A stretch of DNA of 64,000 nt from an uncultured Rhodopila sp. (GCA_903932145.1 CAIZFE010000051.1:4173-68172); one strand, 5' to 3'. Positions 39,489 to 47,692 are shown, counted from the stretch's first letter. The notes: generated by a model not told the origin, from the letters alone. A program made the numbers and translations.

Positions 39489-39755
39489 ATGCCGACGCAA
39501 CAACTCCTCCTGCGCCTACCGGATGATTTAGTTCGGCGATTCAAGCAGATCGTGCCAGCCCGTGAACGCAGTGCGTTCGTGCGGCAGTTGTTGGAACAGG
39601 CGCTGCCTTCGGCTGATAGCGACAACGACCCGCTTTATCTGGCGGCGCTCGCGGTCGAGCAGGATACGGTGCTTGGTGCGGAAATGGCCGAGTGGGAAGC
39701 GGCGACCCTCGACGATGGTTGGAACGAGACACCTCCCGTTGGCCGGCACCCGTGA
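39489..39755 (+). CDS. Ribbon-helix-helix (CopG/MazE-like) antitoxin
   Basis: N-terminal LLLRLPDDLVRRFKQIV RHH motif. Stop abuts the toxin ATG. Alternative start 39453. Confidence 0.6.
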   Translation: MPTQQLLLRLPDDLVRRFKQIVPARERSAFVRQLLEQALPSADSDNDPLYLAALAVEQDTVLGAEMAEWEAATLDDGWNETPPVGRHP

Positions 39756-40097
39756 ATGGCGCATGCCCCGGTGGAAGTCCGTCGAGGATCGATCTGGTGG
39801 GTTGAGCTTGATCCGGCCCGAGGCGCCGAAATCCAGAAAACGCGGCCAGCGGTTGTACTCACAGCCGATGGGTTGAACCGGGTGCGACGCACGGTCGTAG
39901 TGGTCCCGCTGTCCACCGGTCCGGCGCCGCGACCTCCCGTGGTCGTCGCGGTTTCCTCTGCAGGTGAGGGTTCGGTGGCCGTATGCGACCAGATTCGGGC
40001 TGTGGATAAATCGCGCCTGACGCGTGGCGGCAGAGCGTTGTCGCGAGAGGATTTGCGGGCGGTCGAGGCCGGCGTGCGAGCTGTTTTGGTCTTGTAA
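39756..40097 (+). CDS. MazF/PemK-family type II toxin endoribonuclease
   Basis: RGSIWWVELDPARGAEIQKTRPAVVL...VVVPLST...VAVCDQIRAVDKSRL is a canonical PemK/MazF signature. Confidence 0.8.
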   Translation: MAHAPVEVRRGSIWWVELDPARGAEIQKTRPAVVLTADGLNRVRRTVVVVPLSTGPAPRPPVVVAVSSAGEGSVAVCDQIRAVDKSRLTRGGRALSREDLRAVEAGVRAVLVL

Positions 40098-42003: not shown

Positions 42004-42519
42004 CTACTTCAATACCGCCAGAGTCGCCAGACCGGAGCCATAAGCCGTAATCAGCACCGCCAGAATGCCCCACATGTAGGTCTTGGTTGGCAGATCCATC
42101 AACTTCTGATGCATTTCAACGCGCAAATCAGAAATGTCCTTGCCCAGGTCGGCCCGCGTGTCCGCGATGTCCTTGGTAAGATCGGCACGCGTGTCCGCGA
42201 TGTCCTTGGCGAGATCGGCGCGCGTGTCCGCGATATCCTTGGCGAGATCGGAGCGCGTGTCCGCGATCTCCTTGGCGAGATCAGTGCGTGTGTCCGCGAT
42301 CTCCTTGGTAATATCCGCGCGCATGCTGGCCATTTCCGCCCTCGTCGCCAATTGCGGCAACGTCGATGTCAACGTCGCATCGATACGGATAATCATAGGC
42401 TCGAGCCGGAACAGCAGCGACTTTACGTCCCGCATTTCTCCTTCAAGCCGGGCCACACGCTCTTCCATGGGAAGAAAATAAGCACCGGTTGTGGACGATT
42501 CAACATAAAAATCAGCCAT
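42004..42519 (-). CDS. Hypothetical tail-anchored membrane protein with six tandem 11-residue (hendecad) repeats K[ED]IADTR[ATS]DLA; DUF1640-like architecture
   Basis: 171 aa. Helical N-terminus, 6x11-aa repeats, C-terminal TM helix (YMWGILAVLITAYGSGLATLAVL). Confidence 0.6.
   Translation of the reverse strand: MADFYVESSTTGAYFLPMEERVARLEGEMRDVKSLLFRLEPMIIRIDATLTSTLPQLATRAEMASMRADITKEIADTRTDLAKEIADTRSDLAKDIADTRADLAKDIADTRADLTKDIADTRADLGKDISDLRVEMHQKLMDLPTKTYMWGILAVLITAYGSGLATLAVLK
42127..42324. repeat. 33-bp tandem repeat array (6 units; units 2-5 near-identical) encoding the hendecad repeats
   Basis: Units begin at 42127, 42160, 42193, 42226, 42259 and 42292. Consensus (plus strand) gtccgcgatgtccttggcgagatcggcgcgcgt. 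Confidence 0.85.
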
Positions 42520-43168: not shown

Positions 43169-44350
43169 CTACAGGAATAGCCCATCCGGGTCGCCGTTGA
43201 ACATGGCCTTCCCCACTGCCTCGAAATGCGAATCGCGGGACTGAATTTGCTGCGACAGGGTGTGGATATCGCGAAACCGGCGTTCGAACGGGGTGCCGCG
43301 GAAGATGGCGGAGGTGCCGGCGGCCTTGAAGACATAGTCCGCGACCTCGATCGCCGCCCCGATCGCGTGGGCGCACCCAAGACGCACGCGGACCCGGGCT
43401 TGCAGATCGATCGGGGCGATGTCGTCCGCCCCGGCCCAGACGTCTTTCAATATCTCGACCAGCCACGCTCGGGCAGAGCCGAGCGAGGCTTCGCGCCGGG
43501 CGACATCGGCCTGCACGACGGGACTGTCGGCAAGACGTTGCAGACCGCGCGGGGTTTTCTCGGCGGCCAGCACGATGAACTCGTCCAGCATGGCGCGCGC
43601 GATGCCCAATGCGACCCCAACCACGCCGACGGCATACAGACCCGCCATCGTGAACGCATACAGCGGCCCGGCATCGCGGCGCAGCGCCGGGTCCTCGCGC
43701 GTTCCGCTATAAGCTTCGGGAACGAACAGATCGGTGACGCGATACCCCTCGGACGCGGTGCCGCGCATGCCGATTGTGTTCCAATCCTGGATTGGCTGCG
43801 TATGTTCCTTGCGAAACAGCAGGGTACGGATGGTGGTGCGCCCGAAGCGGTTCAGCCGCAGCGAGCCATCGGATTCGATCACCTGACAGTGCGCACCGAG
43901 CCAGTTGGCCTGCCGGCTGCCGCTGGCGAAGTGCCACTCGCCACTGACCTGGTAGCCGCCGGGAACGGCCAGTGCCTTGTATTGGTTGGGCGGCCCCCAG
44001 GAGATCCAGGCGCGCGGATCGGCGAAGATGTCCGTCGCGGTTTCCAGCGGAATGAACGGAGCGATCAGGGCGGCGCTGTTGGCGACAAAAAGGTTCCAGC
44101 CCACGGACCCGTCGTGGCGGCTGATTGCCTCGATCGCGTGGAGATACGTCCAGGGATCGATCTGATCGCCTCCCACCGAACGCGGTAGCAGCATACGAGC
44201 CAGCCGTGAGTCGTGGATCTGCGTCAGCAGCGGTTCGGGGATCGCCTGTGTGCGTTCGATCTCATCGGCGGCGGCGATGATTGCCGGCCCGAGGTCGCGA
44301 GCGCGGGCGACCGGATCGAGGCCAGCCGATCGGATACTGAGATGGTTCAT
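43169..44350 (-). CDS. Acyl-CoA-dehydrogenase-fold flavin-dependent monooxygenase (HsaA/DszC/SfnB-like)
   Basis: 393 aa. ACAD N/M/C domain architecture lacking the CoA-ester catalytic glutamate context. Typically paired with small GlcG-like proteins. Confidence 0.65.
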   Translation of the reverse strand: MNHLSIRSAGLDPVARARDLGPAIIAAADEIERTQAIPEPLLTQIHDSRLARMLLPRSVGGDQIDPWTYLHAIEAISRHDGSVGWNLFVANSAALIAPFIPLETATDIFADPRAWISWGPPNQYKALAVPGGYQVSGEWHFASGSRQANWLGAHCQVIESDGSLRLNRFGRTTIRTLLFRKEHTQPIQDWNTIGMRGTASEGYRVTDLFVPEAYSGTREDPALRRDAGPLYAFTMAGLYAVGVVGVALGIARAMLDEFIVLAAEKTPRGLQRLADSPVVQADVARREASLGSARAWLVEILKDVWAGADDIAPIDLQARVRVRLGCAHAIGAAIEVADYVFKAAGTSAIFRGTPFERRFRDIHTLSQQIQSRDSHFEAVGKAMFNGDPDGLFL

Positions 44351-44485
44351 TGGGACGCTCCCTGCGTCTTGCTTGAACGATTAGCCCCTCGGAGCCGCAA
44401 ACTTGTCAATGTCCGCCGGATTGCAGGCGCCTTCGCACGGCATGGTTCATTGAACAGAACGGCAGGTTCCGCTACCAATCGCAAC

Positions 44486-45160
44486 ATGCGCATATTGCCG
44501 ATCCTCAGTGCCGCCGTCCTGACCGTATCACCTGCCGCGTTCGCGCAGGTTACGGTTGATCTCCACGCATTACAGGCGCTGCCGGAGCATGCCGGGACGA
44601 CCCACCCCGCACAGCCATCCGCCCCCAGAACCCAAACCGTCGTGACCCGCGTCACGCCGTTACCAACCACGCAAACCCCGGCCGCGCCCCAGCCCGCCAT
44701 GCCCGAGGCCGTCCCCGAAACCGCCACCGTCGAGCCAATCGCGCCCGCTCTGCCGTCGTCCGGCATGCCTCCGCCACCGCCGCCCCCCGTGTCGGACACC
44801 GCCAAGACCACGGCCGCGGCGACCACCGCCGGCCTGCGCCTGACCTTCGCGCCCGGCGCCTCCGACCTCAGCCCGGACAGCAGCGAGTCGATCAAAAAAT
44901 TGATTCAGACGACGCCGCCGACCGACACGACGACCTACACCGTGCTGGCTTACGCACCGGGCAAACCGGATGACCCATCCACTGCCCGCCGGATTTCGTT
45001 GTCGCGGGCGATGGCGGTGCGAAGCGCCCTGCTCGCCGACGGCATCCCATCCGCCCGCATCGCCGCCCGCGCACTGGGCGAACAGTTCGGCGACGGGCCA
45101 CCCGATCGCGTCGATGTTAACGTGACCGGTGCAACCCCCAACACGGCCCCATCGCAATGA
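44486..45160 (+). CDS. OmpA-family peptidoglycan-binding protein with signal peptide and Pro-rich linker
   Basis: Start MRILPILSAAVLTVSPAAFA (ATG 44486). PPPPPPP linker. C-terminal OmpA-like domain (YTVLAYAPGKPDD...ISLSRAMAVRSAL). Stop overlaps the next ATG (ATGA). Confidence 0.7.
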   Translation: MRILPILSAAVLTVSPAAFAQVTVDLHALQALPEHAGTTHPAQPSAPRTQTVVTRVTPLPTTQTPAAPQPAMPEAVPETATVEPIAPALPSSGMPPPPPPPVSDTAKTTAAATTAGLRLTFAPGASDLSPDSSESIKKLIQTTPPTDTTTYTVLAYAPGKPDDPSTARRISLSRAMAVRSALLADGIPSARIAARALGEQFGDGPPDRVDVNVTGATPNTAPSQ

Positions 45161-46299
45161 CCCGCCCATCCGGCTACCTCATCCGCATGCTGGCCTTCCT
45201 GGTGGCGGTCGGGGTGGCCGCCGCACTGCTGTCACCCGTCCTGATCACCGCGTTCTTCAACAATCCCGTGCTGAACAGCCTGATCCTGCTGATCCTGCTG
45301 CTGGGCATTGGCTGGAACCTCAATCAGGTCGTCCGATTGCGCCCGGAAGTGGTATGGCTGGAAACCTACCAGACCTCCCGCAGCCGGTTGGCGGCCCTGC
45401 CCTCCCCGCGTCTGCTGGCGCCGATGGCCAGCATGCTGGCGATGCGCGAAGGCAAGGGCGGAGACGGCGGGCGGCATTTCACCCTGTCCGCGACCGGCAT
45501 GCGCAGTCTGCTGGATGGGATTTCCTCGCGTCTGGACGAAAGCCGGGAACTCTCCCGCTACATGACCAGCCTGCTGATCTTCCTCGGCCTGCTCGGCACG
45601 TTCTGGGGCCTGCTGCAAACGGTCACGTCGGTATCGGATGTCATTGGCAGCATGTCGCTGGGCAATGGCGACATGAACCTGATGTTCGACCAGTTGAAGT
45701 CCGGGCTGGCGAAACCGCTGCACGGCATGGGCACCGCTTTCTCGGCCAGCATGTACGGTCTGGCGGGAGCGCTCGTGCTGGGCTTCCTTGATCTGACCGC
45801 CGGCCAGGCGCAGAACCGGTTTTTTAACGAACTGGAAGAATGGCTTGCCGGCCTCACCCGTCTGGCATCCGGTGCGCTGGCCGAGGGCGACGGTTCGGTC
45901 CCGGTCTATGTCCAGGCGCTGCTGGAACAGACCGCCGAGAACATGGAAAACCTGCAACAGATTTTGACGCGGGATGAGGACAACCGCATCCGCGCCAACC
46001 AGACCGCGATGACCCTGAACGACCGGCTCGCCGCTCTGAGTGACACCATGCGGTCGAGCCAGCAACTGATGTTGCGGATCGCGGAGACCCAGACCGCACT
46101 GGGGCCGGCGCTGCAACGGCTGGCCGATGTGCAGGGCGGCGACGAAGCCAGCCGCGACCACCTGCGCAACATTGAAATTTACCTCCAACGGCTGGTCGCG
46201 GAAAACGAGCAGGGTCGCACCCGAGCGACCACCGATTTGCGCAATGATTTGCGCCTGTTGACCCGCACGGTCGCCGCCCTGGCCGAACCTCCCCGGTAA
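45157..46299 (+). CDS. MotA/TolQ/ExbB-family proton-channel protein with about 170-aa C-terminal helical tail
   Basis: 380 aa. Four TM helices in MotA/ExbB arrangement (TM3-TM4 LLIFLGLLGTFWGLL / MGTAFSASMYGLAGALVLGFL) followed by a long predicted alpha-helical cytoplasmic extension. Confidence 0.75.
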   Translation: MTRPSGYLIRMLAFLVAVGVAAALLSPVLITAFFNNPVLNSLILLILLLGIGWNLNQVVRLRPEVVWLETYQTSRSRLAALPSPRLLAPMASMLAMREGKGGDGGRHFTLSATGMRSLLDGISSRLDESRELSRYMTSLLIFLGLLGTFWGLLQTVTSVSDVIGSMSLGNGDMNLMFDQLKSGLAKPLHGMGTAFSASMYGLAGALVLGFLDLTAGQAQNRFFNELEEWLAGLTRLASGALAEGDGSVPVYVQALLEQTAENMENLQQILTRDEDNRIRANQTAMTLNDRLAALSDTMRSSQQLMLRIAETQTALGPALQRLADVQGGDEASRDHLRNIEIYLQRLVAENEQGRTRATTDLRNDLRLLTRTVAALAEPPR

Positions 46300-46305
46300 T
46301 CGATC

Positions 46306-47586
46306 ATGGCAGCTCGGACTCGCAGGAACGGCGGCAACGGTCTGGATGCGTGGCCCGGCTATGTGGACGCGCTGTCGACACTGCTGATGGTCATCATTTT
46401 CGTGCTGTTGGTGTTCGTGCTGGCGCAGGCGTTTCTGACCGTGGCGCTGTCGGGCCGCAGTCATGAACTGGACAAGGCGCAACAGGACCTCTCCGCCCTG
46501 GCCGACGCGTTATCGCTGGAGCGCGGCAAGTCGGCCGACCTTCAGACATCGGTGTCGCAACTCGGTAAGGAACTGTCCGAGCGCTCGGCGGAACGGGACA
46601 GGCTGTCGTCACAGCTTGCCGATGTGACCAAGGCGTTCGAAGCCGCCTCGTCGGCGAATGCACGGTTGAACACTCAGTTGGCCGATACCACCGGGCAGGC
46701 CGACGCCGCCCGCGCGCAGTTGGCGGAGATGCAGAAGCAGATCGCCGAACTGGACCGGACGATCGCGATCGGCAAGGACACCTTGCAGGCGAAAATCTCC
46801 GATCTGGCGACACTGGCCAACCAGGCGCGCGCCTTGACGGCCTTGCGCGACGAGTTGGAGAAGCAGGCACAGGATGCCGCCGCACGGGCGATGACCGAGC
46901 AGCAGCGGCGGGAGGCGGTGCAGATTCAGTTGGCGGATGAGAAGAAACTGGGGGACAGCGCGCGGGCCCAGATCGCGCTGTTGAATCAGCAGATCGACCA
47001 GTTGAAAACGCAGCTCACGGCGATCTCGTCCAGCCTGGAGCTGACCCAGCAGCAGAACCAGGCGAAGGACGCGCAGATCGCCAACCTCGGCCAGCGGCTG
47101 AACGTCGCGCTGGCGGCGAAGGTGGAGGAATTGCAGCACTATCGCAGTGAGTTCTTCGGCAAGCTGCGCACGTTACTGTCCAACCGATCCGGCATCACCG
47201 TGGTCGGTGATCGGTTCGTGTTCCAGAGCGAGGTGCTGTTTCCGGTTGGCAGTGCTGATCTGACCGCCGCCGGGGTCGCGCAGATGACCACGCTGGCGAT
47301 CACGATCAAGGACATTGCGTCAGAGATCCCGCCCGATCTGCACTGGATTCTGCGGGTGGACGGCCACACCGATCCACAACCGGTGAAGGGCGGACAGTTT
47401 CCGTCCAACTGGGAATTGTCGGCGGAGCGAGCGATCACGGTGGTCCGGTTGCTGATTGCCGATGGTGTGCCGGCCGAACATCTCGCCGCGACCGCCTTTG
47501 GCGAATACCAGCCGTTTGGTCCGGGCGAGACGCCGGACGCCTACGCGAAGGACCGGCGGATTGAATTGCGCCTGACCGATCGGTAG
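46306..47586 (+). CDS. MotB/TolR-like TM anchor + about 250-aa coiled coil + C-terminal OmpA/MotB peptidoglycan-binding domain
   Basis: 426 aa. Conserved channel Asp in YVDALSTLLMVIIF (MotB D32-equivalent). Q/A/L-rich heptad region from about 60 to 300. OmpA_C-like end (NWELSAERAITV...). Confidence 0.75.
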   Translation: MAARTRRNGGNGLDAWPGYVDALSTLLMVIIFVLLVFVLAQAFLTVALSGRSHELDKAQQDLSALADALSLERGKSADLQTSVSQLGKELSERSAERDRLSSQLADVTKAFEAASSANARLNTQLADTTGQADAARAQLAEMQKQIAELDRTIAIGKDTLQAKISDLATLANQARALTALRDELEKQAQDAAARAMTEQQRREAVQIQLADEKKLGDSARAQIALLNQQIDQLKTQLTAISSSLELTQQQNQAKDAQIANLGQRLNVALAAKVEELQHYRSEFFGKLRTLLSNRSGITVVGDRFVFQSEVLFPVGSADLTAAGVAQMTTLAITIKDIASEIPPDLHWILRVDGHTDPQPVKGGQFPSNWELSAERAITVVRLLIADGVPAEHLAATAFGEYQPFGPGETPDAYAKDRRIELRLTDR

Positions 47587-47609: not shown

Positions 47610-47692
47610 CCCGTCATGGCCCGGCTTGGCCGGGCCACCTGTCGCGGCACCGCCAGGTCATAGGTGGCCCGGACAAGCCGGGCCATGACGGG
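47610..47692. repeat. Pair of REP-like 31-bp palindromic elements in inverted orientation (BIME-like)
   Basis: CCCGTCATGGCCCGGCTTGGCCGGGCCACCT (47610-47640) and its near-perfect reverse complement (47662-47692). Each unit is internally palindromic. Related copies at 53653-53682, 55320-55350 and 55432-55460. Confidence 0.8.

Follow-up and report, generated by a model that had tools for sequence, protein, structure and literature searches.

A candidate ion-driven motor of the MotAB/ExbBD/ZorAB type with a heptad-phased periplasmic coiled coil in Alphaproteobacteria

The 5:2 ion-driven motors known to date fall into a small number of functional classes, namely flagellar MotAB, Ton, Tol, gliding/type IX secretion system (T9SS) and Zorya. 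In a 64,000-nucleotide stretch of DNA from an uncultured Rhodopila sp. (GCA_903932145.1 CAIZFE010000051.1:4173-68172), denoted here as the window, three tightly linked plus-strand genes, g1, g2 and g3, encode a secreted OmpA-like protein and proteins resembling the A and B subunits of such motors, respectively. As the initial annotation of the window had read from the sequence, g1 and g2 overlap by ATGA and a gap of 6 nucleotides separates g2 from g3, an arrangement that indicates co-translation of the three genes; the same genes were called independently on identical public metagenomic contigs, and the source names attached to near-identical proteins point to Rhodopila-like Acetobacteraceae. 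We propose, with a probability of roughly 0.6, that g2 and g3 encode the two subunits, A and B respectively, of an ion-driven motor of the MotAB/ExbBD/ZorAB type, and that such motors form a separate family, passed on vertically within Alphaproteobacteria and with a housekeeping function in the cell envelope. The gene structure, the conservation of fold and motifs, the co-conservation of g2 and g3, the housekeeping synteny and the heptad phasing of the coil were observed directly. Considering the invariant Asp, the Thr/Ser ring, the ExbB/ZorA fold, the MotB-type anchor and the co-conservation together, a 5:2-type ion-driven complex appears to be best supported.

In the solved ZorAB structures (PDB 8QYD, 8VVN and 8VVI), the A subunit combines an ExbB-like transmembrane (TM) core with a helical cytoplasmic tail and a Thr/Ser polar ring, and the B subunit carries an N-terminal TM Asp, D21 in type II ZorB as in g3, and a C-terminal OmpA-type peptidoglycan (PG)-binding domain. 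The products of g2 and g3 resemble them in each of these respects. Hydropathy placed TM segments of g2 at residues ~8-32, ~38-60 and ~135-157, and a fourth at ~185-212 was assigned from the helices of an AlphaFold2 (AF2) model, which had a predicted local distance difference test (pLDDT) score of 83, together with the conserved PLxGMGTAFS motif. In the model, the fourth TM helix runs to about residue 238 and is followed by a disordered break (241-247) and by a tail that forms a helical hairpin (helices 250-325 and 330-376). In a fold comparison, the TM core and the membrane-proximal cytoplasmic helices matched ExbB, ZorA, TolQ and MotA, with MotA ranked below the other three, and the best sequence-family match was the PADLOC ZorA1 hidden Markov model (HMM; E = 2.3e-14). 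The relation of g2 to ExbB and ZorA is visible only at the level of the fold and with such family HMMs, and no curated NCBIfam family exists for g2. These features agree with the four-TM subunit of the MotA/TolQ/ExbB type with an extra helical tail that had been proposed for g2, the tail being about 165 residues long.

The residues expected of a channel are conserved in both proteins. In an alignment of 32 g2 homologues with identity down to 33%, Thr148 in the LGLLGTFWG motif of the third TM helix is invariant, and Ser196 and Ser198 in the PLxGMGTAFSxS motif of the fourth are at least 90% conserved. The polar ring of ZorA is formed by Thr147 and Ser184 (PMC11946911), and Thr148 and Ser196 of g2 parallel these residues. 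The distal motifs of the g2 tail, HLRNxD and E[IL]R[LV]L[AT]RT[IL]A, are kept in the same alignment, and the tail has a heptad score of z = 3.4. The sole TM helix of g3 carries the sequence YVDAL with Asp21 near its cytoplasmic end, and the channel Asp that the initial annotation had pointed out is not lost on alignment: in two g3 alignments, of 16 and 24 sequences, W16, P17, G18, V20 and D21 are all invariant. The WPGxVD motif is also present in Sinorhizobium meliloti and in distant relatives of low guanine-plus-cytosine (GC) content.

Behind the TM helix, g3 consists of an A/L/Q-rich stretch predicted to be helical (residues 52-291, about 240 residues) and of an OmpA-type domain (Pfam OmpA, 46.7 bits, residues 311-415), so that the order of single TM helix, coiled coil and OmpA/MotB domain stated earlier was found. 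The C-terminal domain matches MotB, PomB and MotS structures in the PDB at E = 1e-12 to 1e-8, and D356 of GHTD, N368, L371, S372 and R375 of NWELS..RA, and RRIE at 417-420 are invariant in both g3 alignments. The family of g3 is catalogued as NCBIfam PRK09039 (NF006542-NF006546), 'peptidoglycan-binding protein'; g3 passes its equivalog cut-offs (NF006543, 490.2 bits against 305; NF006544, 373.6 against 362), and the S. meliloti orthologue scores 692 bits on NF006544. The PRK09039 entry is a name without a function attached and without a link to an ExbB/ZorA-like partner.

At 50% identity, the members of the g2 family form 2,522 clusters with an E-value limit of 1e-3 and 532 with a limit of 1e-30. 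For the genomic context, we analysed the best 80 species loci of at least 598 obtained by a pattern scan with one genome per species, with flanks of up to 8 kb that were shorter at contig ends; an antisense 'shadow ORF' (open reading frame) cluster, cluster 1 of a crude ORF clustering, was left out of the neighbour analysis. The loci were taken from Acetobacteraceae, Rhodospirillales, Azospirillum, Kiloniella, Defluviicoccus and others. A g3 homologue directly follows g2 in 79 of them and the 80th is too short to hold one, which bears out the pair as a conserved syntenic unit. Upstream on the same strand, epmA/epmB, efp and suhB recur, as does thiE, and an ABC transporter and rpmE recur downstream; where 3 kb or more of upstream sequence was available (63 loci), suhB is present in 53 and efp in 47. 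The backbone of efp-suhB upstream and ABC-rpmE downstream is found even around a low-GC relative that is only 33% identical. On the annotated S. meliloti chromosome, the genes run thiE, sel1, suhB, 'MotA/TolQ/ExbB proton channel family protein', 'peptidoglycan-binding protein', ABC transporter, rpmE and DUF1465; the two module proteins there (orthologues of LZK74_31000 and LZK74_30995) share 40-41% identity with g2 and g3. In the lineage of the window itself the intact module has been relocated away from efp-suhB, and in a distant lineage (~35% identical) g2 and g3 lie about 5 kb apart and are both kept. The ancestral context of the module is housekeeping, with efp-suhB upstream and the ABC transporter and rpmE downstream, and g2-g3 is a widespread, vertically inherited alphaproteobacterial module that is not peculiar to this genome. 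Its conserved place beside genes of translation and housekeeping speaks for a role in core cell physiology and against one in defence, as does its retention in non-motile genera of Acetobacteraceae such as Komagataeibacter.

Some loci deviate from this pattern. In the distant low-GC g2 subfamily (~35% identity), the gene next after g2 is not g3: in one locus (L084, 125-1735) g2 is followed by a 145-residue FliJ-like coiled-coil protein and then by murA, and in another (L089, 672-8179) an ABC ATPase follows g2, with the g3 orthologue about 5 kb off on the opposite strand. Three PLSDB records (CP090106.1, NZ_CP069303.1 and NZ_CP104131.1; loci L087 and L088) are Sinorhizobium/Shinella replicons of 3.5-4.6 Mb filed as plasmids, one of them labelled pSymB; since they carry the core genes rpmE, purE and thiE, they are apparently mislabelled chromosomes.

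Membership of the module in the flagellar, Zorya and Tol/Ton systems each fails at least one defining test. MotAB and PomAB resemble the module in the four-TM topology of the A subunit and in the TM Asp and OmpA-type PG-binding domain of the B subunit, and several databases label these genes 'flagellar motor protein MotA' and 'chemotaxis protein MotB', labels that we consider misleading. That the module is a paralogue of a flagellar stator would fit these names and the resemblance of the g3 C-terminal domain to MotB, MotS and PomB, but the cytoplasmic domain of g2 is compact and ExbB-like, MotA is the poorest of the four fold matches, and g3 has a coiled coil hundreds of residues long in place of the short plug/linker of MotB. 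No NCBIfam MotA model matched g2 at E < 0.1, and the MotB, MotS and MotD models scored 34-95 bits on g3 against cut-offs of 250-301. The gene calls on the identical contig placed no flagellar, TonB or TolB genes within 10 kb on either side of the module, as had been noted for its surroundings, and genes of flagellar, chemotaxis, Tol-Pal, Ton or Zorya effector type are not among its recurring neighbours in the 80 loci. The orthologues in these loci never sit in a flagellar/chemotaxis or Tol-Pal context, a setting that would have pointed to a known stator paralogue. The module is also present in Gluconacetobacter and in Komagataeibacter, which is described as non-motile. Taken together, a flagellar paralogue is highly improbable.

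The same holds for a Zorya-like anti-phage sensor whose effectors lie elsewhere or have not been recognised. While ZorA1 and ZorB3 of PADLOC are the best HMM matches of g2 and g3 (ZorB3, E = 3e-25) and the cytoplasmic tail of the A subunit is helical, the ZorA1 match (51 bits) covers only profile positions 105-269 of 683, the ZorB3 match (87 bits) is confined to the generic PG-binding domain, and NCBIfam ZorA_2 gave 18.5 bits on g2 against a cut-off of 100. The tail of ZorA has about 280 residues in type II and about 460 in type I, well above that of g2; g2 has an extra N-terminal TM helix, with four predicted against three in ZorA (PMC11946911), and ZorB lacks the long coiled coil that g3 carries between its TM helix and its PG-binding domain. 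No ZorC/D/E/F/G genes and no other PADLOC families were found beside the module: among eight flanking window proteins, PADLOC gave no Zor match, and one protein had weak coiled-coil matches to LeoA/DruG. The tail had been said to recall ZorAB without a Zorya effector following, and both halves of that statement stand. The efp-suhB synteny is stable across orders, unlike the patchy distribution of defence islands, and phage records encode no homologue. A defence-island reading was tried and rejected on the conserved synteny, the lack of relevant PADLOC matches in the flanks and the lack of homologues in phage records.

Compared with ExbB-ExbD and TolQ-TolR, g3 is MotB-like with an OmpA domain and not ExbD/TolR-like, g2 is extended by one more TM helix at its N-terminus and by a long tail at its C-terminus, and a separate transducer of the TonB/TolA type was not found at the module. 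No TolB, Pal, CpoB or TonB-dependent receptor genes lie near it in the window or in the 80 loci, and the Pfam and NCBIfam models of ExbD/TolR, TolA/TonB and TolB did not match any module protein. The Pal model scored 32.6 bits against a cut-off of 125 and matched as a generic OmpA domain only. The idea that g3 fuses TolR-, TolA- and Pal-like parts is therefore retained as an analogy: the generic OmpA domain is there, but the TolR/ExbD, TolA and Pal family models are unmatched.

The long coiled coil of g3 sets it apart from ZorB and MotB. The heptad periodicity of g3 stands at z = 6.7 against shuffled sequences. We measured the linker from W16 of the TM motif to the conserved YRSEFF ahead of the OmpA domain in 281 unique homologues, among which it spans 151-613 residues, an about four-fold range. 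Among 53 distinct linker lengths, 33 equal 4 modulo 7 (binomial p = 1.3e-15), and moduli other than 7 showed no enrichment; the minor length classes are shifts of +4 and +3, i.e. the stutter and stammer of coiled coils. Judged from these lengths, the rod is most readily seen as a single, uninterrupted parallel coiled coil with its phase constrained at both ends and its length free, and the heptad-quantised length argues for a continuous coil that rigidly couples the TM helices to the PG-binding dimer. A straight periplasmic coil would measure about 35 nm in g3 here and 18-86 nm across orthologues (~120-580 residues, with heptad phase kept). The distance from inner membrane to peptidoglycan in Escherichia coli is cited as ~9 nm (PMC11946911), so that spanning the periplasm, the rationale given earlier for the length of the coil, does not explain it.

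The first gene of the module encodes a protein with a hydrophobic, signal-peptide-like N-terminus ending AFA|Q (…PAAFA|QVTVD…), a Pro/Thr/Ala-rich linker and a divergent C-terminal OmpA domain (Pfam, 35.6 bits; cut-off 27.2); with 15.6% Pro overall, it is the secreted Pro-rich OmpA-domain protein that had been predicted. The Asp of GHTD that is canonical for PG-binding OmpA domains is not recognisable in g1, where the sequence reads LAYAPG. A g1 homologue lies directly 5' of g2 in 63 of 78 loci (~80%), often with the identical 4-nucleotide ATGA overlap, and is missing from the S. meliloti locus; g1 is thus a frequent, lineage-variable periplasmic accessory and not a universal part. In close relatives, a conserved short motif, QVTVDLHALxALP, at the mature N-terminus of g1, immediately behind the signal peptide, precedes a Pro-rich linker of very variable length, and this motif could be a docking peptide for a partner.

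The coil and g1 bear on the main rival explanation, a periplasmic force transducer in which proton-motive-force-driven movement of the g3 dimer along the phase-locked rod would pull or twist peptidoglycan and, via g1, perhaps the outer membrane, in the manner of TolQRA-Pal or GldLM. The phase kept over the four-fold range of lengths is as expected of a shaft that bears torque or tension, a translationally coupled periplasmic partner accompanies most loci, and the fold of g2 is equally close to ExbB/TolQ and to ZorA. However, g3 ends in a canonical PG anchor, static as in MotB and ZorB; many lineages, S. meliloti among them, do without g1, whose presence is not associated with a longer coil (p = 0.24); and an outer-membrane partner was not identified. 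The constant length of the g2 tail and its conserved distal motifs also suggest that the tail has a function of its own. We regard the force transducer as unlikely. The canonical PG anchor on the B dimer together with the constant-length tail favours ZorAB-like mechanics, and by this analogy ZorAB would be mechanically the nearest known machine, with a wall-fixed B dimer as the stator and the A pentamer with its tail as the moving output.

Based on the solved relatives, a ring of five g2 subunits would enclose the TM helices of a g3 dimer, and protons would pass by way of Asp21 of g3 and the Thr148/Ser196 ring of g2. The g3 dimer would continue as the parallel coiled coil into the MotB-type domain that fixes it to the cell wall, and the g2 pentamer with its cytoplasmic tail would be the moving, presumably rotating, part as in ZorAB. 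In this scheme g1 would be a translationally coupled, lineage-variable periplasmic OmpA-like accessory, and the module would serve a housekeeping envelope function and not motility, nutrient uptake or phage defence. The initial annotation had proposed a previously uncharacterised envelope machine driven by the proton-motive force, one that stands apart from flagellar, Ton and Tol genes and lacks Zorya effectors, and the context, the motifs, the fold and the invariant Asp support it.

Several results weigh against the proposed motor. On g2, Pfam MotA_ExbB gave 18.0 bits (E = 0.0025, residues 116-208), below its gathering cut-off of 22.9. Single-sequence and profile searches of g2 against solved structures returned coiled-coil noise and no solved A subunit, so that the assignment of g2 rests on fold and motifs. 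The coil far exceeds the membrane-to-wall gap cited for E. coli, and a simple upright stator does not explain its length. The monomer model of g3 is of low confidence (pLDDT 62) and was used for secondary structure only, and a conserved cytoplasmic protein that might partner the g2 tail was not found in the neighbourhoods of the 80 loci. The Pfam score would also suit a passive tether between inner membrane and peptidoglycan, in which the ExbB-like subunit is a mere membrane scaffold without ion-driven movement, and a coil that is very long and varies in length looks like a leash more than like a component of a precise machine. Nevertheless, three features relevant only to ion conduction, namely the Asp of the channel, Thr148 and the Gly-rich motif of the third TM helix, are invariant or nearly so down to 33% identity, and we consider a passive tether improbable.

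The features of the locus are listed in Table 1. The intergenic region upstream of g1 is presumed to be the promoter region of the module; a promoter search of its 135 nucleotides found no sigma-70 consensus. Downstream, an inverted repeat begins 24 nucleotides past the g3 stop codon and is followed by an iron-containing alcohol dehydrogenase (Fe-ADH) gene, in keeping with the repeat pair and Fe-ADH gene reported before. Its arms are one pair alone in the whole window, no T-run terminator was called on the plus strand, and it is probably a transcript-end hairpin or an element resembling repetitive extragenic palindromic (REP) sequences.

Table 1. Features of the module and its surroundings (window positions, except for the last three rows, which are positions in the named loci)
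Feature	Position	Strand	Size	Basis or remark
Divergent acyl-CoA dehydrogenase-like gene, upstream of intergenic region	43169-44350	-		
Upstream intergenic region, presumed promoter	44351-44485	+	135 nt	ORF map and gene calls
g1	44486-45160	+	224 aa	ORF map
g2	45157-46299	+	380 aa	ORF map
g2 membrane core, residues 1-214, four predicted TM helices	45157-45798	+		Presumed ion-channel/rotor subunit
g2 cytoplasmic helical tail, residues 215-380	45799-46299	+		AF2 secondary structure, conserved motifs, heptad score
g3	46306-47586	+	426 aa	ORF map
g3 N-terminus, basic cytoplasmic segment and single TM helix	46306-46458	+		Hydropathy, invariant columns
Asp21 codon of g3	46366-46368	+		
g3 periplasmic coiled coil, residues ~52-291	46459-47178	+		Helix prediction, heptad periodicity
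g3 C-terminal MotB/OmpA-type PG-binding domain with preceding conserved YRSEFF	47179-47586	+		Pfam OmpA, PDB matches
Inverted repeat, 31-nt arms, 97% complementary, 21-nt spacer	47610-47692	.		Repeat search
g1 homologue with QVTVDLHALxALP-type N-terminus, locus L004	7294-8004			
g1 homologue with QVTVDLHALxALP-type N-terminus, locus L006	802-1713			
g1 homologue with QVTVDLHALxALP-type N-terminus, locus L013	6896-7696			

Elsewhere in the window, a PemK/MazF-type toxin ORF (39756-40097, plus strand; Pfam 92.8 bits) is not among the gene calls of the identical public contig. It is directly preceded by an 88-residue ORF without a family match (39489-39755, plus strand), which may be the antitoxin, and a HigB-family toxin gene lies about 1.5 kb upstream in the gene table of that contig. 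The 171-residue product of an ORF on the minus strand (42004-42519) contains an 11-residue unit (…DIADTRADLAK…) repeated in tandem five or six times, and its C-terminal helix is hydrophobic. Its apolipoprotein-like match is weak, scoring under the cut-off, and the protein appears to combine amphipathic repeats with a tail anchor.

Sequences of the family are already catalogued at NCBI as 'peptidoglycan-binding protein', 'MotA/TolQ/ExbB proton channel family protein' or flagellar MotA/MotB. A search of the full-text literature, with subscription-only literature outside it, found no functional or structural study of the g2/g3 family. Recent surveys of MotAB relatives, 5:2 motors and periplasmic force transducers do not describe it, and neither do studies of Rgs, CenKR and R. 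rubrum PapS. What is new here is that the g3 coil is heptad-quantised, variable in length and fixed in phase. From the coil, a design rule is predicted in which insertions of 7 residues are tolerated and those of 3 or 4 residues are not, and the family has orthologues in species amenable to genetics, Sinorhizobium meliloti and Azospirillum among them.

A bolder and more tentative proposal, which we regard as possible and not as probable, is that the module represents an undescribed class of 5:2 rotary motors, an Alphaproteobacteria-wide core housekeeping machine and possibly a non-defence sister of ZorAB. It would have a wall-anchored B dimer with a rigid heptad-phased shaft of free length and a rotating A pentamer acting via its short cytoplasmic tail, and could couple the proton-motive force to envelope mechanics or to coordination of wall and membrane in a clade lacking Lpp-type tethers. 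If the motor reading is true, a further class of ion-driven machine, located beside housekeeping genes, would point to an unrecognised envelope process dependent on the proton-motive force in Alphaproteobacteria, including rhizobia and acetic acid bacteria, and the Zorya sensor could have been recruited from a housekeeping relative for which this family would be a candidate.

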